Sequence record: OZ346219.1
Source: a phage
Length of the DNA: 64,000 nucleotides
Strand: one strand, 5' to 3'
The notes beneath the pieces are model-generated. The model was given only the letters and a program-made list of their open reading frames with translations, was not told the origin of the DNA and made no database searches. Below are positions 9,579-17,537 of this stretch, one piece after another. The translations under genes were made by a program, and so were the position numbers. Every line of letters begins with the position of its first letter. The first letter of the stretch is position 1.

Positions 9579-10604
9579 CTAACTTTTTGCGCTATTTACC
9601 TCGGCTAAAAGTTCATCAGAAATACGCTTGACCGCCGCAAGTTCTTCCGGTTCTAGGTTTTGTTCTTCCAGATATTCATAGACCATCTGAATAGTGCTTT
9701 TAACTTCAATAACACCTGTTTCCTGTGATGCGCTACTCTCCAGCTTATGGACCACTTTTAGCTTGTGTACAACGGCCTCTAAAGCGCTTTCTAACTTAGT
9801 TAACCCATTATCAGCGACCGTTGCGATAAGACGCACACTAAGCCCCTTAAAGCGTTCTACATCGATTTTATCATCTGACGGGTAAGTGATACGCACATGA
9901 TAAGTTTTGTCATTCTGGATAAACTCCTTTTTGTGTGTATCGGTATCGAATACCCAAAAACCACGCGGATCGTTTTCGTCACCAGCCGTTAGTGTGTATG
10001 GTGTACCAATATACGTTACGTTACCGCCATCACTGATAGTATGAAAGTGACCAGAAAACACTTCACGGTATTTCTTGAGGAAGTCCGCGCTATAACCTTC
10101 TGATTTTAGACCTTTATAGAAATAGTAACCGGACAATTCCCAATGGCCTACACAATATTCGCTGAATGAGTTTTGAATAAACTCTAAAATCTCTGATTTA
10201 TTGTCATCACAAAACCACGGGAACAGATCAAATGATACACCATCAAAGGTGACTGTTTCCGGTTTATCGATAACCTTAATGCAATCATACTGGCTTAACA
10301 CTTCACGCGGTGCGTTAGGCTGGATCTTGTTTCGTTTAAACATATCATGGTTCCCGACCGTGATATAACAAGTAATTCCAGCCTCTTCCAGTAATGGGAT
10401 GACCTTAGTACGGTTAAATTTCATGGTTTCATGGGTAATTGCTTTTCGGCAATCAAACCAATCCCCTGTTTGAATCCATGTCTTAATATTATGCTCTTTG
10501 GAGTATTCAACCGCCTTCTTGATGGTATCAAGAATATACTCATGCACCCACGGATCATCGCCACCGATACCAGTATGCAGATCACCTAAAAGCAAAATTT
10601 TCAT
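9579..10604 (-). CDS. 47: Recombination nuclease (gp47-like, Mre11/SbcD family)
   Basis: 341 aa; calcineurin-like phosphoesterase motifs LLLGDLH and VGNHD; size and position as T4 gp47; GAGGAAGAG SD. Confidence 0.9.
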   Translation of the reverse strand: MKILLLGDLHTGIGGDDPWVHEYILDTIKKAVEYSKEHNIKTWIQTGDWFDCRKAITHETMKFNRTKVIPLLEEAGITCYITVGNHDMFKRNKIQPNAPREVLSQYDCIKVIDKPETVTFDGVSFDLFPWFCDDNKSEILEFIQNSFSEYCVGHWELSGYYFYKGLKSEGYSADFLKKYREVFSGHFHTISDGGNVTYIGTPYTLTAGDENDPRGFWVFDTDTHKKEFIQNDKTYHVRITYPSDDKIDVERFKGLSVRLIATVADNGLTKLESALEAVVHKLKVVHKLESSASQETGVIEVKSTIQMVYEYLEEQNLEPEELAAVKRISDELLAEVNSAKS

Positions 10605-10694
10605 AGTCTCTTCCTCTCTTCGTTTTCGATGCTCTCACTATATCACAGAAAAATAAAAAGGGAAACCCCTTTCAGAGTCTCCCCTATAAAGCCA

Positions 10695-10982
10695 TTACAG
10701 CATACTTAATACCGTTTGCCGTGTACTAATCCACATAGCAGAAAGCAGTTCTGGCGTGTGTGGCTGTTTGTAGATATCACGTAACTTTCCGATAGCGTAG
10801 ATATACGCATCACGGTTATCATCGATGATAGCTTGTTCAGCCCACCGCTTAAGGCGTGCAATCTCTCGCGAGTTCTTACGCAAGATCTTTTCCGCTTTCT
10901 TAGCGGCTTTAGCCTCTAGTTCTGCTTGTACTTTGTCTACTTCATTCACTGCAATCTGGTCATGCTGTTCATCGTAAGTCAT
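10695..10982 (-). CDS. Hypothetical protein
   Basis: 95-aa ORF with AAGGA SD; occupies the 47-55 interval where T4 has a-gt. Confidence 0.4.
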   Translation of the reverse strand: MTYDEQHDQIAVNEVDKVQAELEAKAAKKAEKILRKNSREIARLKRWAEQAIIDDNRDAYIYAIGKLRDIYKQPHTPELLSAMWISTRQTVLSML

Positions 10983-10983
10983 G

Positions 10984-11217
10984 TTATTTTCCTTCTGGGA
11001 TATAGTCGATGATTAAAGAAAATTCATCTTCTGATACATTATAGCTATGTGAGATTGTACCCGTAAAGACCTCAAGATCCGGTGATTTGATATTGCACGG
11101 ATCGATAATCACCGGAACGCCGCAATCTCTCAAAAATAATTTGGCGAAATACGGCACAAGGTCAGTTTCAAACTCTGCTTCTTCCAGCAAACGGGAAATG
11201 TTAATTTTCAATCTCAT
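10984..11217 (-). CDS. Hypothetical protein
   Basis: 77-aa ORF; start overlaps 3' end of gene 55; weak SD. Confidence 0.35.
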
Positions 11218-11734
11218 AAAATTGGTCCAAGCTAGGCAATTCCTCGGTCAATACATCTTCAACCTTTGGCGCTTTCGGTTTATTGACCGATTCCTCGTAG
11301 TTGTTGATTTTATCGTAAATGTCCTGTATGAATGCCTCATCAGCAATCTGGCACATATCAGCGTCGCGTTCGTCATATACATGATGCACAAAATATTTGT
11401 ATTTTGCGGCTGTCGCTGTTCTCTCTTTTTTAATGCGCTGTACAAAAGCATTAAAGCACGCTTGCGTGATGTAAGCATGAGGATTTTTATACTTTGTCTC
11501 GTCAAAATTAATCAAACCCTTGACCGCCGCTTCGATTCCGTCGTCGATCATTTCTTCGCGCCACGTTTGACTATAACCAGAAAAGTTAAAACGACGTGAT
11601 AGATTTTTAGAGATTTGCATAATTGCTAGGCCGATTTGATCGCTCATTGGAACTTGCCGACCTTCTGCTGCAATTTGTTGTTTCCAACGGCAAATTTCTT
11701 CGTAAAGCTCTTTATTGTTTACATAATCAGACAC
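11201..11734 (-). CDS. 55: Late-transcription sigma factor (gp55-like)
   Basis: 177 aa; [42 protein letters not shown] and tail [11 protein letters not shown] match recalled T4 gp55; apparent GTG start with GAGGGTG SD. Confidence 0.9.
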
Positions 11735-11774
11735 TTCGCACCCTCGCTATTATTTAGGAAATAACCCTTTCGGG

Positions 11775-13244
11775 CTATTCCCCATTACCATTATACTTTC
11801 TTTGCTTAGTTATCCACACTCTAACCATCTCTACAGATTCGCCGTCAGACGGATCAAGAGTTTTTCCTTTTTTCTTCATGCGGTACTTAAATCCGTTAAA
11901 TCTTGCATTCTCTTGCTCGTTAAAGTCGAACATCTTTTTAAATGATTTTCGCCCTTTACGTTCACCACATTCTAGCGGAATCATTCGATCTGTTATTACA
12001 TTGGCATTAGGCAGAAACGTTTTTAGATAATCCACCAACGCCCAATCAGGAACATATAGATTAACATTCTCCTTGCTCTCGTTGTCTCTCAGGTTACAAC
12101 GCAAACATAATTGAAATGCTGGTTCCAGATAATCAGACACATGACGCGCTTTCAAAAACTCGTTTGTCGGGAGATCACAACTATTAGCAAGACCTTTTAA
12201 AATATCAATCTCCCATCGTTGAGGGTTAAAGCTGAACATCACAGCAACATTTTTATGATGAATGTAAGAGTTAAGACCATAAGACCCGTAAGGTATCCGC
12301 TCACCAATACCATTTGTACACGCTTCACGGTCCCGATTCACGGTATAAATGAAGTCATCGCCACATTCATTTTTAACCATATCAACAAGACGTTCAAAGG
12401 TATTGTTTGTTTCTGACTGGTGACGCGACCATCGTTCAGAGTCCGTCATAAGGATGATATTAACTCTATCTGTATTTTTATACTCTTTGAAATATAGTCT
12501 GGATTCTAGCGCACTCGGAACAAAATCGCAATTTGCATAGTATCGTAGATACTTCCCACTATATGTATCAAAGAGATTTGCACATGCTATCGTAACCTTT
12601 TTAAAGTCTCCCCACGTACCGTGTTTGTTATCGTTCAAGAAAACAATTTTCGACCCATTCTTCCGGTGTCCTTCGTTATGTTTTACCATAACGTTGATTT
12701 TCTTCTCTAATAACGCCTCATAAAGCCCTCTAAGAGAAGAATCGATCATATCAGTACCATCCTTCGCACTTTCTATCTTTTCTTTGATAGCGGCCTTCTC
12801 AGAGTCTTTTAGAACTAAGTTCTGTAGGCATTCCGATTCGTCGGCGATTGGTTCGCAATGCTTAGTGATAAGTTCAAGATTAGACTTAAACGGATACTCA
12901 TTAAATTCAACCAGTTGAGGAACTTCATCAATGTAAAGAGCATAATCACCAAACATTTTTGAACGTTCCATATTAGATAACGCTGTATGTGTAATGAATA
13001 TCACATCAGCACCATCTTTAACTGATTGCATTATCGACGCTTGCACTGTCTTAAGGCTTCTTAGTCTTGTGCTATCAATCAAGACAGCACGACCGCCCAT
13101 TCTTTTAAACTTATTGTAAGATTGTTCACTTAAAACACGAGATGGCGAAGCAATAACCGCTTTTTCTTTTGTCTCTAGGACGTGGGAAAGTATAGCATCA
13201 GTTTTCCCCGCCGCTGGCAATGCGATTAATGTTTCAATCTTCAT
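11775..13244 (-). CDS. P-loop NTPase of unknown function
   Basis: 489 aa; N-terminal LPAAGKTDA (Walker A-like) and ALYIDEVPQ (Walker B/DExx-like); AAGGG SD; I recall no T4 counterpart at this position. Confidence 0.6.
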   Translation of the reverse strand: MKIETLIALPAAGKTDAILSHVLETKEKAVIASPSRVLSEQSYNKFKRMGGRAVLIDSTRLRSLKTVQASIMQSVKDGADVIFITHTALSNMERSKMFGDYALYIDEVPQLVEFNEYPFKSNLELITKHCEPIADESECLQNLVLKDSEKAAIKEKIESAKDGTDMIDSSLRGLYEALLEKKINVMVKHNEGHRKNGSKIVFLNDNKHGTWGDFKKVTIACANLFDTYSGKYLRYYANCDFVPSALESRLYFKEYKNTDRVNIILMTDSERWSRHQSETNNTFERLVDMVKNECGDDFIYTVNRDREACTNGIGERIPYGSYGLNSYIHHKNVAVMFSFNPQRWEIDILKGLANSCDLPTNEFLKARHVSDYLEPAFQLCLRCNLRDNESKENVNLYVPDWALVDYLKTFLPNANVITDRMIPLECGERKGRKSFKKMFDFNEQENARFNGFKYRMKKKGKTLDPSDGESVEMVRVWITKQRKYNGNGE

Positions 13245-13531
13245 TAGAAACCCTTACGTCGTTCTTTCTGGCATTTCTTGATCATTTTATCAGAAATTTC
13301 GCGCTTAGGTGCAATCTCTTTCACACCGAAAGCACTAATGCCAAATTCAGAGAGAATATATTCAACCAACAATTCACGCACACGCGCTTTACCGATATTC
13401 ACGCCGTTATTTTTCAGATATGTCTGGCCTTCGACTTGCATCAGATCTAAATCTGCGTCGGTAATATTGATTTCTTCCATGCGCCCAAATCGAGAATAAA
13501 CCATGTGTGCGATTGCATTGTGTACTAACAT
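13244..13531 (-). CDS. Hypothetical protein
   Basis: ATG 13531 with GAGGAA SD (track start TTG). Confidence 0.4.
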   Translation of the reverse strand: MLVHNAIAHMVYSRFGRMEEINITDADLDLMQVEGQTYLKNNGVNIGKARVRELLVEYILSEFGISAFGVKEIAPKREISDKMIKKCQKERRKGF

Positions 13532-13552
13532 AATATATTCCTCACTCAAGAA

Positions 13553-13660
13553 TTACTTAATGATACTTACTTTACCAGATCCATGACAATGAGCGCAACA
13601 CCCATCACCACGCAATCCTGTTCCGTTACAGTGTTTACACTTCTTCAACGGTAAAGCCAT
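13553..13660 (-). CDS. 35-aa microprotein with two CxxCxGxG zinc-finger motifs
   Basis: Read by hand, below track cut-off: MALPLKKCKHCNGTGLRGDGCCAHCHGSGKVSIIK; DnaJ-type periodicity; no clear SD. Confidence 0.35.
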   Translation of the reverse strand: MALPLKKCKHCNGTGLRGDGCCAHCHGSGKVSIIK

Positions 13661-13700
13661 TATAGCAAATAAAGCAATAATGAATACCGAAACTAAATTC

Positions 13701-13970
13701 TCAATAATCATAAATCGCCCTCAGTTCTTTATAGCCTCCAATGTGCTCGTTGTCAATGAATATCTGGGGGTATACAAACCGGAGGCTCTTTGAGTTCAGC
13801 CTCCCCGCCAGTTCTTCAATCATATCACGGTCGGGAATAATGTCAACCCCGACCTGCTTGAATACTGGTTTAAGTGTATATGGAATACCCAGATCATCCA
13901 GTAGCTTCATTGCACTAATACAACCATAACAATGATAAGCCTCTTTCGGTATACCGTATATCTCGATCAT
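13701..13970 (-). CDS. Glutaredoxin/thioredoxin-like protein (NrdC/NrdH-like)
   Basis: 89 aa; active-site CYGC near N-terminus, C-terminal IGGYKELRAIY; AAGG SD. Confidence 0.7.
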   Translation of the reverse strand: MIEIYGIPKEAYHCYGCISAMKLLDDLGIPYTLKPVFKQVGVDIIPDRDMIEELAGRLNSKSLRFVYPQIFIDNEHIGGYKELRAIYDY

Positions 13971-14443
13971 TTCTCAGCCTTTAATCTTTCTAGTTCTTCT
14001 TCCAGTTCCTTGATCCGTTGGTCACGTTCAAAGTCACGCTGCAACTTAGTGGCGAATACTCGTTTAAACTGATTGTAATCATCGATTTTAAACACTTCTT
14101 CTTCGCCATAGCGACGCACAGAAACTTCGTAGTTATTGAAGAATTGTTGCATCATTGCTTCGGATGATAGTTCTGCTGATACTACTTTAAAATATTGATC
14201 TTCGGTAGGTGAAAACCAATTACAAGCATAAAGATAAACCTTTTCATTGTCTGGACACTGGTAAGCCTTACCATCGATTTCAATCACAGAAACATATTCA
14301 GGTATAGTAGATGAATCAATAGCTAAGACTTTAAACTGACGGTCCCCGATAAACTCGGAGATCACACGATTCGCATCACTGGTTGCAAAGGCTTTACGCG
14401 CTTGTTCGTTTTTCCACTGATAGGTCATGCCAACAACAAACAT
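13967..14443 (-). CDS. WEVGKTY-family paralogue (coiled-coil C-terminus)
   Basis: ATG 14443 with GAGG SD; MTYQWKNEQARKAF module; C-terminal KELEEELERLKAEK. Confidence 0.5.
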   Translation of the reverse strand: MFVVGMTYQWKNEQARKAFATSDANRVISEFIGDRQFKVLAIDSSTIPEYVSVIEIDGKAYQCPDNEKVYLYACNWFSPTEDQYFKVVSAELSSEAMMQQFFNNYEVSVRRYGEEEVFKIDDYNQFKRVFATKLQRDFERDQRIKELEEELERLKAEK

Positions 14444-14444
14444 A

Positions 14445-15269
14445 TTACCAACCTCGCTCTTTACCAATCAAAAATTCAACTTCACGACGTTTAATGTCTT
14501 CTTGAAGGTCTTTAATCTTCTGGCGATCTTGCATTATTTCGTCCATCTTGTCAAGTGCTGCGATGAAATCATCGAAACGTTCAAAGGTTTTACCTTCATT
14601 TGCTTCGCTAAATTTAACCATTGTCAGGCCATAACGACTACTAAACAGACGTTTCAACTGTCCAACGATCTTAGAATCAGTGGTTATAACTTCCAATTCT
14701 TCTACTTCACGAAAGAATTTTCTATCAGAATCAATAAACCAGCTAGTTCCTTTATGGTCGCTATCTTCGGTTGCACTCATTAGAGTATGGTCTTTACCAT
14801 CAATTTCAATTACATTAACTTGCCCACATAGACTAACATTTTTAACAGTAAAAGGTCTATAATTTATTGCTCGTGCAATAACATAATTAAGGTTAGATAC
14901 GTTTTCAGCATAATGACAGAAGTCGGTCATAGCATTCGCATCTTTCCAAGTATAAGTTTTACCAACTTCCCATTTCTGGGGAACTTCTTCAACTTCACGA
15001 AAGAATTTTCGATCGAATGGACTAAAGAAATATGTTGCAGTCCAAATGTCTTTTCCTGTAGCAGTTTTCGCCGTATGATAAACACCGTCTAGCTCTATTG
15101 CATTAATCCAACCGTTACCCTCGATCTCGATGATGGTAAATGGCTTGTCACCAATAGCTGCACTAATATCGCTGTTAAGTGGAGAAAGAACACCTTCTCC
15201 GTTAGTAATAAACTCAGTTTTAGAGTTTTCATCTTTCCAAGTGTAAGTTTTACCAATTTCCCATTTCAT
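14445..15269 (-). CDS. WEVGKTY-family paralogue, internally duplicated
   Basis: 274 aa; two copies of the ~95-aa module (MKWEIGKTYTWKD and QKWEVGKTYTWKD, each followed by DRKFFREVEE); AAGGGG SD. Confidence 0.55.
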   Translation of the reverse strand: MKWEIGKTYTWKDENSKTEFITNGEGVLSPLNSDISAAIGDKPFTIIEIEGNGWINAIELDGVYHTAKTATGKDIWTATYFFSPFDRKFFREVEEVPQKWEVGKTYTWKDANAMTDFCHYAENVSNLNYVIARAINYRPFTVKNVSLCGQVNVIEIDGKDHTLMSATEDSDHKGTSWFIDSDRKFFREVEELEVITTDSKIVGQLKRLFSSRYGLTMVKFSEANEGKTFERFDDFIAALDKMDEIMQDRQKIKDLQEDIKRREVEFLIGKERGW

Positions 15270-15281
15270 AATATATTCCCC

Positions 15282-15746
15282 TTAACCGATTTTATCAAGT
15301 TCGTTTAATGCTTTCTCTGCTTCCGGTATAGCTTGCACCCTTTCCGGCATTTTGTCAAGAAAATCTTTCAACTCTTCAAAACTGGAGATATGACGCAAGG
15401 CATTAGCACCGATAGCCGCATGTGATTTGCATTCAAAGCGAATTTTATAATTATCCATAGCCAATTTGAGAAGATCAATTAGTTTAGATTCTTCTGGAAT
15501 AATAATTTCTTCAAATCTGCTACGGTCGTGACACAGAAACCAACAATATAGACCTACATCGGTTGAACTCATATAAGTTCCATCATGAAGATATACAGAT
15601 CGCACGTATCCTTTTTTCGCATCAACCGACGCAACTTTAAACGGTAATCTCAGATATTTCAAATAATCAACATCATACCATTTAAAAAATTGTTTTGCAT
15701 CTTTTACATCTTTCCACGCATAGGTCTTACCAACTTCCCATTTCAT
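15282..15746 (-). CDS. WEVGKTY-family paralogue
   Basis: ATG 15746 (MKWEVGKTYAWKD) 7 nt after upstream stop. Confidence 0.5.
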   Translation of the reverse strand: MKWEVGKTYAWKDVKDAKQFFKWYDVDYLKYLRLPFKVASVDAKKGYVRSVYLHDGTYMSSTDVGLYCWFLCHDRSRFEEIIIPEESKLIDLLKLAMDNYKIRFECKSHAAIGANALRHISSFEELKDFLDKMPERVQAIPEAEKALNELDKIG

Positions 15747-15750
15747 AATA

Positions 15751-16278
15751 TCATCTCTCATTTTTGATACGTGATTCTAATTGGATCATACGGTCGCGCG
15801 TTTGCTTATATTCTCGGATAGCACCGATCCGGCTAGGCATACCATCCAGTACGCTCTTAATACCTTCTAGGGTAGTGATTTTAGCAATGCTATTATGTAA
15901 CCCCATCTTATCGATCAACTGAATGTCGTAGGCTTCCATAAGCAGACCCAGGAGTTCTAAAGTTAGGTCTTCTTCTTTTTCTTCCGATTCTGGAATCTTA
16001 GGTTCAATAGTAACTTCGGTAAAGAAACGACGCTCACCAGACCAAAACCACACACCGGAACAGCCAATAGGGGATTCTTTTAACGTCATAGAGTCGTAAC
16101 CACTTCCGATAATAGTAATTTCTCTAACATCACCATCATCGTCAATGTCTTCTACCATAAACGGGCGACCAGCCAACAGGTCCACAATACATCTGTTAAT
16201 AGACGACGAAAATTTAGTCAGTTCGGCTTTCGACGCTTCACATTCAATCTTGTAAGTTTTACCAACTTCCCATTCCAT
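15751..16278 (-). CDS. WEVGKTY-family paralogue
   Basis: ATG 16278 (MEWEVGKTYKIE) with GAGGTGA SD overlapping nrdG stop. Confidence 0.5.
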   Translation of the reverse strand: MEWEVGKTYKIECEASKAELTKFSSSINRCIVDLLAGRPFMVEDIDDDGDVREITIIGSGYDSMTLKESPIGCSGVWFWSGERRFFTEVTIEPKIPESEEKEEDLTLELLGLLMEAYDIQLIDKMGLHNSIAKITTLEGIKSVLDGMPSRIGAIREYKQTRDRMIQLESRIKNER

Positions 16279-16288
16279 AATAATCACC

Positions 16289-16792
16289 TCAAATAATTTT
16301 CACTGGAATACTATTAACAATCTTGTATTGTACTTGATTGTCAGACCCCCGCCACGGCTTCTTCGTTGGCATATCTTTAATATAACGCCCATCGATGAAC
16401 ATGTCAACAGATTCTACAATTTTTCTTTGCTCATCATTCAATTGGTCAAGGGTATAACCAGACCATAGCCAAATATCTTTATTTGGCATCCATGATTTTA
16501 CTTCATCGATGATCCGCTGTACACCCTTTAAATTGCGTTTATACAATGGATCGCCACCTAAGAATGTTAGTCCCTGAATAAAATCAGGTCTAAGCAGATC
16601 CAGAATCAATCCCATTGTATCATCGGTGAATGGTTCCCCGTTCTTAGGATTGAGTAGGCTAGCATTAAAGCAACCATCACATGCGTGTGAACATCCGGTA
16701 ACGTAAAGGGAGACTCTCACTCCCTCACCGTTAACCATATCACAATCTTTAATATCGGCATAGCGTAGTTTGCCGTATGTATCAGAACTCAT
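16289..16792 (-). CDS. nrdG: Anaerobic ribonucleotide reductase activating protein (radical SAM)
   Basis: CSHACDGC cluster near N-terminus typical of NrdG; adjacent to nrdD as in T4; ATG 16792. Confidence 0.85.
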   Translation of the reverse strand: MSSDTYGKLRYADIKDCDMVNGEGVRVSLYVTGCSHACDGCFNASLLNPKNGEPFTDDTMGLILDLLRPDFIQGLTFLGGDPLYKRNLKGVQRIIDEVKSWMPNKDIWLWSGYTLDQLNDEQRKIVESVDMFIDGRYIKDMPTKKPWRGSDNQVQYKIVNSIPVKII

Positions 16793-16934
16793 ATTCAATT
16801 ACCCCGAACTCGTTTACAATCTGCGCTTTATAGTAACCACCGCGAGATGCTAATAGATAAGCTGGGCTTAGGTATTCGTATTCACGGATTTCTACTTGTG
16901 CGTTTTCAGTTTCCCAAATCAGTAAAGTCCACAT
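16782..16934 (-). CDS. Hypothetical small protein (50 aa)
   Basis: ATG 16934 with AGGAGAATCAAAT leader, directly downstream of promoter 16977-17005. Confidence 0.35.
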   Translation of the reverse strand: MWTLLIWETENAQVEIREYEYLSPAYLLASRGGYYKAQIVNEFGVIEYEF

Positions 16935-16976
16935 ATTTGATTCTCCTGTAAAGTTGTATCTCGTCTTGATGAATAT

Positions 16977-17005
16977 AGTATAGGGGATCTCGCGATCCCC
17001 GTCAA
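16977..17005 (-). promoter_or_regulatory. Sigma70-like early promoter with stem-loop spacer
   Basis: Minus strand TTGACG-GGGATCGCGAGATCCCC-TATACT; 17-nt palindromic spacer. Confidence 0.55.
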
Positions 17006-17009
17006 GCAT

Positions 17010-17537
17010 TTATTTTAAATTTTTTCGAATGTAGTCAGACCATTCCTTCCCTGTCAGTTCGGTCCCATTCTGGAAACTGAAATATTCATACGGCATCGAG
17101 TCAAGATAAAACAGGATCATACATCGCGCCATATAATACCAATCACGATTAAAGTAAACTACGTTATCGCCAGTACCATCAGCACCTTTATCATAACCAT
17201 CGCGGGTACGGGCGACCCATTGAATAGTATCATTTTTCTCACGGATCGTAACAGGTTCCCAATATCCAGCACATCCAGCATGACCACACGAACAAGTAAG
17301 GAAATATTGTCCTTTTGCTTTGTTGTCGTCCCATTCACGATGGATTGGTTCGATCTCGTGAAACAGTGCTAAGCAATCATGATTATGCAACACTGGCTTA
17401 CCATCAATCAATGCATGGAATGTATACAAACGACCCGTAGACAAATAGCTATCCTCACGCTCAACCAGTTCAATAGCAATCTTTTTAGCTCGTTCTTTGT
17501 GTCGTTGTGCTTTACGCTTACGGTTTAATGATTTCAT
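17010..17537 (-). CDS. Hypothetical protein
   Basis: ATG 17537 with GAGGTGA SD; basic N-terminus, Cys/His-rich middle. Confidence 0.45.
   Translation of the reverse strand: MKSLNRKRKAQRHKERAKKIAIELVEREDSYLSTGRLYTFHALIDGKPVLHNHDCLALFHEIEPIHREWDDNKAKGQYFLTCSCGHAGCAGYWEPVTIREKNDTIQWVARTRDGYDKGADGTGDNVVYFNRDWYYMARCMILFYLDSMPYEYFSFQNGTELTGKEWSDYIRKNLK

Follow-up and report, generated by a model that had tools for sequence, protein, structure and literature searches.

A predicted accessory superfamily 2 helicase of XPD/DinG-like architecture, encoded between gene 55.2 and gene 55 in RB49-type and related T4-like phages

The window analysed in this study, a stretch of 64,000 nucleotides (nt) of phage DNA (sequence record OZ346219.1), is a Krischvirus genome of the RB49/Phi1/JSE type. 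Our subject is a gene at 11775..13244, located between a homologue of T4 gene 55.2 and gene 55, which encodes a superfamily 2 (SF2) helicase-like protein of 489 amino acids (aa). This gene and all other features of the window described below lie on the minus strand. The open reading frame (ORF) runs from an ATG to a TAG stop codon at 11775-11777, and the plus-strand frame over 11775-13244 contained many stops. The 4-kb stretch around the gene shared 99.8% identity with phage kaaroe and 98.7-99.5% with RB49, Phi1, GEC-3S, and others. The equivalent gene in Phi1, which is nearly identical to the window, is ORF044 (phi1p044); it is labelled 'hypothetical protein' and is also located between the 55.2 homologue and gene 55. 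The GC content of the gene was 38.8% compared to 40.2% for the window, which gives no sign of a recent import.

The profile of phrog_2467 ('unknown function') was matched over the full length of the protein (E 2.9e-175), aa 1-489 corresponding to profile positions 8-502 of 502. Full-length homologues (n = 42) with identities of 31-99% were found in a large protein collection; the 489-aa ORF is therefore not a chance ORF. An alignment of 39 homologues, 32-74% identical to the query, contained 55 invariant columns. Residues are given in true protein numbering, with Met1 as 1. An earlier note on this DNA had described a 489-aa ORF directly upstream of gene 55, with a Walker A-like LPAAGKT near its start and a DExx-like YIDEVPQ about 95 residues later. 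This description was confirmed, with the two motifs at aa 9-15 and aa 104-110, 95 residues apart, and gene 55 beginning 40 nt downstream of the ORF.

LPAAGKT represents motif I (Walker A, 13200..13220), in which P10, G13, K14, and T15 were invariant among the 39 aligned sequences, and YIDEVPQ represents motif II (Walker B, 12915..12935), with D106, E107, and P109 invariant in the same alignment. A motif Ia-like sequence (ASPSRVLSEQS, aa 32-42, 13119..13151; ASxSRxLSxQS in the family) aligned with PTRELAAQ of the DEAD-box protein RhlE, and a motif Ib-like sequence (VIFITHTAL, aa 81-89, 12978..13004; IFITHxAL in the family) aligned with the corresponding RhlE motif. A motif III-like strand (VTIACANL, aa 217-224, 12573..12596) was located by alignment and model, and a motif VI-like sequence (FQLCLRCNLR, aa 377-386, 12087-12116) showed the pattern QxxxRxxxR, of which Q378, R382, and R386 were invariant in all 39 sequences. 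The match to the Pfam family DEAD (PF00270), over aa 11-130, was marginal (27.3 bits, with the cut-off at 26; E 3.4e-6), and 17 of the 39 family members matched it at E <= 1. The protein had no match in NCBIfam, and PDB sequence searches with the single sequence and with the family profile returned nothing useful, one IclR chain appearing at E 0.49.

A confident AlphaFold2 model was built on the family alignment, with a mean predicted local distance difference test (pLDDT) value of 88.2 and a predicted template modelling (pTM) score of 0.76. In the model, the first RecA-like domain is interrupted by an alpha/beta insertion right behind the motif II strand; the motif III-like strand comes next, followed by a second RecA-like domain, whose last element is the QxxxRxxxR helix, and a tail. 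The insertion of about 100 aa (approximately aa 111-213, 12606..12914), delimited by the secondary structure of the model, has three to four predicted strands and two long helices. The second RecA-like domain (approximately aa 225-411, 12012..12572), delimited by alignment, model, and structural matches, carries the family motifs WSR, FIYTxN, (P/G)xxGLNxY, and FSFNP. The helical C-terminal tail (aa 412-489, 11778..12011), recognised from the model and from its composition, is basic, with a pI of 9.8 and 18 lysines and arginines among the last 80 residues. The SF2 features present are Walker A, Walker B, and, in the predicted fold, two tandem RecA-like domains, the second of which contributes the motif VI arginines. 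We conclude that the protein is very probably an SF2 helicase-like ATPase. The helicase- or ATPase-like core proposed by the earlier note was borne out by the above-threshold DEAD match, the invariant SF2 motifs, and the predicted two-RecA fold; its remark that some 350 aa after the DExx motif lack recognisable motifs did not hold, as the insertion domain, the second RecA-like domain with QxxxRxxxR, and the basic tail were found there.

The model was compared to solved structures in the PDB by Foldseek, a check that the earlier note had named. The first-ranking matches were CasDinG, archaeal XPD, Staphylococcus aureus DinG, and Hna (E 1.5e-10 to 1e-6). The highest structural-neighbour scores also belonged to the XPD/DinG group: F. 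magna DinG (18.2, 355 residues aligned), XPD (3crv; 18.2, 328 residues), CasDinG (17.7, 340 residues), Rad3 (17.4, 332 residues), and Xpd4 (17.2, 316 residues). The best of the other SF2 proteins was ERCC6 (14.6, 255 residues), followed by Snf2-type and other proteins. T4 UvsW scored 12.3 over 158 aligned residues, which did not identify the protein as its ortholog. As described in a 2025 review of bacterial proteins (PMC11981726), DinG-like proteins consist of two motor domains with an Arch domain inserted in the first, usually have an iron-sulphur (Fe-S) or pseudo-Fe-S domain between beta3 and beta4, translocate 5'->3', and have been reported to resolve R-loops. The aligned length was greater for the XPD/DinG proteins (316-355 residues versus about 255), which suggests that the insertion at aa ~111-213 matches their Arch domain and may form a compact Arch-like domain. 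An XPD/DinG-like architecture is, from the predicted structure, likely.

The phage protein would share its overall architecture with the XPD/DinG (Rad3) proteins, especially the Fe-S-less CasDinG and sDinG, and differs in several respects. At 489 aa, it is shorter than the XPD/DinG proteins (about 550-740 aa), its insertion is much smaller, and it is phage-encoded, whereas the DinG-like proteins of the review are bacterial only. It also lacks an Fe-S or pseudo-Fe-S domain: about 10 residues occupy the expected place in the model, and the only invariant cysteines, C130 and C380, are far apart. The proper description is an SF2 helicase of XPD/DinG-like architecture and not a DinG, as the protein lies outside that family by sequence. 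In the sDinG subgroup, the Fe-S region is likewise wholly lacking, and the capacity for ATPase activity has been doubted (PMC11981726). By this likeness, the phage protein could be a degenerate, inactive helicase fold that serves as a scaffold. We consider this very unlikely, and the data contradict it: K14, T15, D106, E107, Q378, R382, and R386 were all invariant across the family, and the same residues for ATP binding and hydrolysis were retained in the longer relatives described next.

At a cut-off of E <= 0.001, an exhaustive search with the family profile retrieved 1,328 cluster representatives. Proteins of 750-890 aa with the helicase module at the N terminus were numerous among them. 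When the phage family was aligned by hhalign with 32 of these long forms, the probability was 100% (E 9.6e-53) over phage-family columns 1-450, which corresponded to columns 9-464 only of the 866-column long-form profile; the first ~40 residues of the C-terminal tail, to about aa 450, are thus the only part of the tail still aligned with the long forms of mobile elements. By this profile alignment, the whole predicted motor, including the insertion, is common to both groups. The long forms (phrog_31024; gp191 of Atu_ph07; proteins of Mesorhizobium, Bosea, Azospirillum, and others) share the helicase module, the insertion, and the motifs PHGLN, ALNP, and QxxxRxxxR. They carry about 340 additional aa, a primase-like region with a PriCT-like end, where the window protein has its short basic tail. 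The extension is marked by the motifs WLDNDGG, PRxRVFIPT, HGFDxSK, and a terminal GxGNxxFFxLxxxLxxAG. All 12 isolated C-terminal extensions that were searched matched phrog_9765 'DNA primase' (best E 9.7e-10), and sub-threshold Pfam matches among the 32 long forms were found to PriCT_1 in six and to RepB_primase_C in two; no solved structure was matched by the extension in a sequence search. The 762-aa gp191 of the Agrobacterium jumbo phage Atu_ph07 (locus L007, 5995-8283) carries the same extension (probability 99.5%).

The named sources of the bacterial long forms were Alphaproteobacteria. In two of their loci (L012, 8001-10445; L013, 7856-10300), the long form comes immediately after genes for a tyrosine integrase of the P4 type and an AlpA-like HTH_17 protein, and an integrase fragment or defence-type cargo was present near other long forms. 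In P4-type integrative elements, primase-helicase replication genes are located after integrase and AlpA. The helicases known to accompany primase in such fused replication proteins belong to SF3, SF4, or MCM, and we know of no description of an SF2-helicase/primase fusion. As a separate observation, defence-type genes on the long-form islands (L009, 7472-10125; L010, 16751-18517) encode two N6_N4 methyltransferases, a GmrSD_N protein, and AAA_21 ATPases along with a UvrD-like helicase, a pairing that recalls Gabija.

One RB43-type homologue, in Klebsiella phage phi1_146002 (PP889458.1; locus L014, 3001-4428), is labelled 'DNA primase'. Besides this label, a primase identity for the phage protein would be favoured by the existence of homologues of its helicase module in which a primase-like domain is present as well. 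However, that homology stops at about aa 450, and Phi1 already carries the gp61 primase. No ORF in the window matched the profile of the extension, and a full-length long form matched each listed T4-like genome once, over its first ~480 residues only. With the extension absent from both the phage protein and the ORFs of the window, a DNA primase identity was rejected as contradicted by the data and is hardly conceivable; the label in PP889458.1 is, judged by these alignments, probably an over-transfer from the fused relatives.

The distribution of the gene was determined by tblastn in 50,697 phage records. A cut-off of E <= 1e-5 gave 244 matching records, and relaxing it to E <= 10 raised the number only to 247. 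Taking as denominator the 1,881 records with the neighbouring gp55, the helicase was present in roughly 13% (about 244) over all groups. It was present in all 59 records with Krischvirus-level identity (>= 95%) and in all 77 Aeromonas phage records, in 54 of 612 Escherichia phage records, and in nine of 278 Klebsiella phage records, so that the presence or absence of the gene among related phages, raised as a question by the earlier note, follows clades. About 185 records matched at 34-42% identity, including phages of Proteus, Morganella, Serratia, Erwinia, Cronobacter, Citrobacter, Enterobacter, and Klebsiella, RB43/RB16, and T4-like Aeromonas phages of every kind. A few large phages that are not related to these (Atu_ph07, Salicola SCTP-2, and two from Pseudoalteromonas) matched weakly. 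Even at E <= 10, the matched records listed included no T-even phage. Phages of Synechococcus (280 gp55 records), Acinetobacter (70), and Vibrio (51) were not among the ten commonest genera listed, which leaves their absence unproven.

In T4, the slot between 55.2 and 55 is filled by the 87-aa gp55.1, which has no similarity to the helicase (best BLASTP E 1.6); an origin of 55.1 as a remnant of the helicase gene was thereby ruled out. The statement of the earlier note that the protein has no T4 counterpart at this position was correct for T4 itself. It does not extend to T4-type phages in general: many Straboviridae other than T-even phages encode the protein as a conserved hypothetical (phrog_2467), and a homologue is already labelled 'putative helicase' in one existing record. 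The same note had reported a-gt as missing between genes 47 and 55, and this was also found: T4 has a-gt, mobB, and a-gt.2 to a-gt.5 in this interval, whereas a-gt and mobB are absent here and Phi1 has only homologues of a-gt.4 and a-gt.5, whose counterparts among the ORFs of the window matched phrog_951 and phrog_1169. An anticorrelation of the helicase gene with hydroxymethylcytosine was considered and is not strict, as the helicase is also present in Aeromonas phages 44RR, 31, and 25, which carry gene 42 (PMC2993671).

Phage DNA replication has its reference system in T4, whose helicase set is well defined and consists of gp41, Dda, and UvsW. UvsW (SF2, like the present protein) and Dda (SF1B, moving 5'->3', the direction also proposed for the present protein) are accessory, non-replicative DNA helicases encoded alongside gp41, as is proposed here for the phage protein. 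Phi1 encodes Dda, gp41, gp61, and UvsW; the helicase gene is therefore an addition and not a replacement, and a role as substitute for a missing Dda or UvsW was ruled out.

The product of the gene upstream of the helicase (13244..13531) is homologous to T4 gp55.2, with 42% identity (E 3e-20). The TAA stop codon of this gene overlaps the helicase ATG (TAATG), and a Shine-Dalgarno-like AAGGG is located 6 nt 5' of the ATG, an arrangement that is compatible with translational coupling. The downstream gene 55 (11201..11734), with a GTG start, encodes the late sigma factor (phrog_234, E 4e-63), and in Phi1 the helicase gene is part of the 46/47-55-nrd DNA-metabolism region. Neighbours were counted in 29 IMG/VR loci encoding relatives of the helicase. 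A 55.2 homologue was located upstream on the same strand in 28, abutting or overlapping the helicase gene in about 21, and gene 55 was located directly downstream in 21 of the 29. The exceptions included the RB43 and RB16 records and similar loci, in which the tail-fibre gene 34 follows (shown for RB16 and for a Klebsiella phage), and one locus that ends at a contig edge.

A sigma-70-like promoter match (TTGTCA, 18 nt, TATCAT; 13560..13589) was found just upstream of 55.2. A strong terminator-like hairpin with a 12-bp stem followed by a T-run (10654-10685) was found between the a-gt.4 homologue and gene 47, and the overlapping predictions at this site were the sole terminator-like sites on the helicase strand within 10500-17500. 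No match to the T4 late-promoter consensus TATAAATA was present near the helicase gene. Because of the promoter match upstream of 55.2, the location of terminators only past a-gt.4, and the lack of a late promoter, the data weakly suggest a pre-late transcription unit, 55.2-helicase-55-a-gt.5-a-gt.4. The adjacency to gene 55 could also indicate an RNA helicase or a transcription-coupled motor that remodels RNA, displaces RNA polymerase, or aids the gp55-dependent late switch. Neither the structural ranking nor the RB43-type gene order fits such a role, which we regard as improbable.

Further upstream, four consecutive ORFs (13967-14467, 14445-15269, 15282-15761, and 15751-16287) share an N-terminal M(K/E)WE(V/I)GKTYxWKD module, which is present twice in the 274-aa ORF. 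Two scanned ORFs of this set matched phrog_5347 and goF-like PHROGs, and the region 13967-16287 is an apparent tandem array of paralogues between nrdH and nrdG. A 52-aa ORF at 13553-13711, which matched phrog_3931 and is labelled 'putative membrane protein' in phage W115, has a hydrophobic N-terminal helix followed by CKHCNGTGLRGDGCCAHCHGSGK, with two CxxCxGxG repeats that resemble a DnaJ-type zinc finger. In Aeromonas phage 25, ORF050c (locus L003, 3429-4004) overlaps the helicase start and is annotated in RefSeq as 'DprA-like DNA recombination-mediator protein'; it had no Pfam match at E <= 0.01 and was dropped as functional evidence.

The gene is accessory, clade-restricted, and located in a variable region, and the immunity helicases CasDinG, Hna, and DdmD were among the structural neighbours of its product. 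Two long-form relatives are located beside GmrSD-, AAA_21/UvrD-, and methyltransferase-type genes, and the small neighbouring ORF 55.2 of T4 targets a host protein (PMC4396842). These observations would fit a factor for counter-defence or competition between phages, that is, an ATPase of helicase type that keeps competitors out or acts on host immune complexes by stripping or blocking them. On the other side, there was no significant match in PADLOC-DB (the best, RTasSLATT, had E 0.0089 and 13.6 bits over 60 residues), and neither the Pfam scan nor the predicted model revealed a nuclease or other effector domain. The position of the gene is fixed in a DNA-metabolism block across genera at 35% identity, which is untypical of anti-defence genes with their fast turnover. 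The long forms, with a primase-like domain and a location after integrase and AlpA, fit the replication of an island that bears defence genes. We consider a counter-defence or competition role unlikely.

The interpretation that we favour, with moderate confidence, is that of an accessory, ATP-driven SF2 DNA translocase or helicase of XPD/DinG-like overall architecture that serves replication, recombination, or restart. ATP would be bound by K14/T15 of Walker A and D106/E107 of Walker B and sensed by Q378, R382, and R386 of the second domain, and its hydrolysis would open and close the cleft between the motor domains. This motion would drive the enzyme along single-stranded DNA, probably 5'->3' by analogy with XPD/DinG, and duplex or hybrid structures would be unwound during phage replication, recombination, or restart. 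The protein would then add a fourth helicase to the set of gp41, Dda, and UvsW, and it is probably expressed pre-late together with the DNA-topology modulator gp55.2. A replication role is proposed for the stand-alone phage form because the same module is fused to a primase-like domain in a jumbo phage and in integrative elements; for a role in DNA replication or recombination as such, we put the chances as even. ATPase and helicase activity, DNA substrate, polarity, expression timing, and biological role are all properties that we infer.

Several observations weigh against this interpretation. The XPD/DinG-like assignment depends on the predicted structure alone, from which we also infer the equivalence of insertion and Arch domain, and the Foldseek template modelling (TM) scores were modest (0.41-0.52) with high root-mean-square deviations. 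The Pfam families DEAD_2 (PF06733) and Helicase_C_2 (PF13307) were not matched by the query at E <= 10 and are missing from the list of families matched by the 39 members (E <= 1). Alignment of the family profile with E. coli DinG by hhalign gave an uninformative probability of 0.6%, such comparisons with single sequences (E. coli DinG and RhlE, ~1%) being too insensitive to discriminate. The gene is missing from T-even and most other T4-like phages and is thus dispensable for the basic T4 replication scheme, and two of the long-form loci lie among defence-type genes. The T4-like gene order is broadly conserved, and the linkage to 55.2 and 55 may be historical and not functional. The candidate promoter of the 55.2-helicase-55 unit is a weak indication, a consensus match only, in a region with 29 sigma-70-like matches versus 21.3 +/- 4.3 expected, which is no significant enrichment. 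No biochemical or genetic study of any family member was found in the literature searched, and the literature on Krischvirus/RB49 helicases and on phage XPD/DinG-like helicases, including the Petrov review and the Phi1/RB49 paper, left the gene unstudied.

T4-type origin replication starts from R-loops. The T4 gp55.2 protein binds DNA and specifically keeps E. coli topoisomerase I from relaxing negative supercoils (PMC4396842). This inhibition should favour negative supercoiling and R-loops, which DinG-type helicases are reported to resolve (PMC11981726), and a link to the helicase is speculative. In an extended version of the favoured interpretation, integrative elements and jumbo phages would use a class of replication proteins, so far undescribed, that combines primase with an SF2 helicase of XPD/DinG-like type and without Fe-S domain, and the phage protein would be the motor of this class in stand-alone form. 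In RB49-, RB43-, and Aeromonas-type phages, this motor would work with a translationally coupled gp55.2 when replication initiates and would exploit or resolve hypernegatively supercoiled DNA and R-loops, a route that T-even phages lack. We offer this version as a conjecture with a small chance of being correct.

The gene itself was already in public records. Its Fe-S-less XPD/DinG-like architecture, its sharp clade distribution with a near-obligatory 55.2 linkage, and its relation to the SF2-helicase/primase fusions appear to be new, as no paper on any of these three points was found in the literature searched. The protein is not a new kind of system; it is an unstudied, divergent accessory enzyme, and, for an accessory gene with an inferred role, its practical importance is modest. 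A concrete and testable annotation now replaces a mix of 'hypothetical', 'putative helicase', and 'DNA primase', and the gene is tied to the SF2-helicase/primase fusions of mobile elements. A sizeable branch of the T4-like phages would, on this reading, run its DNA metabolism with an additional, unstudied motor.

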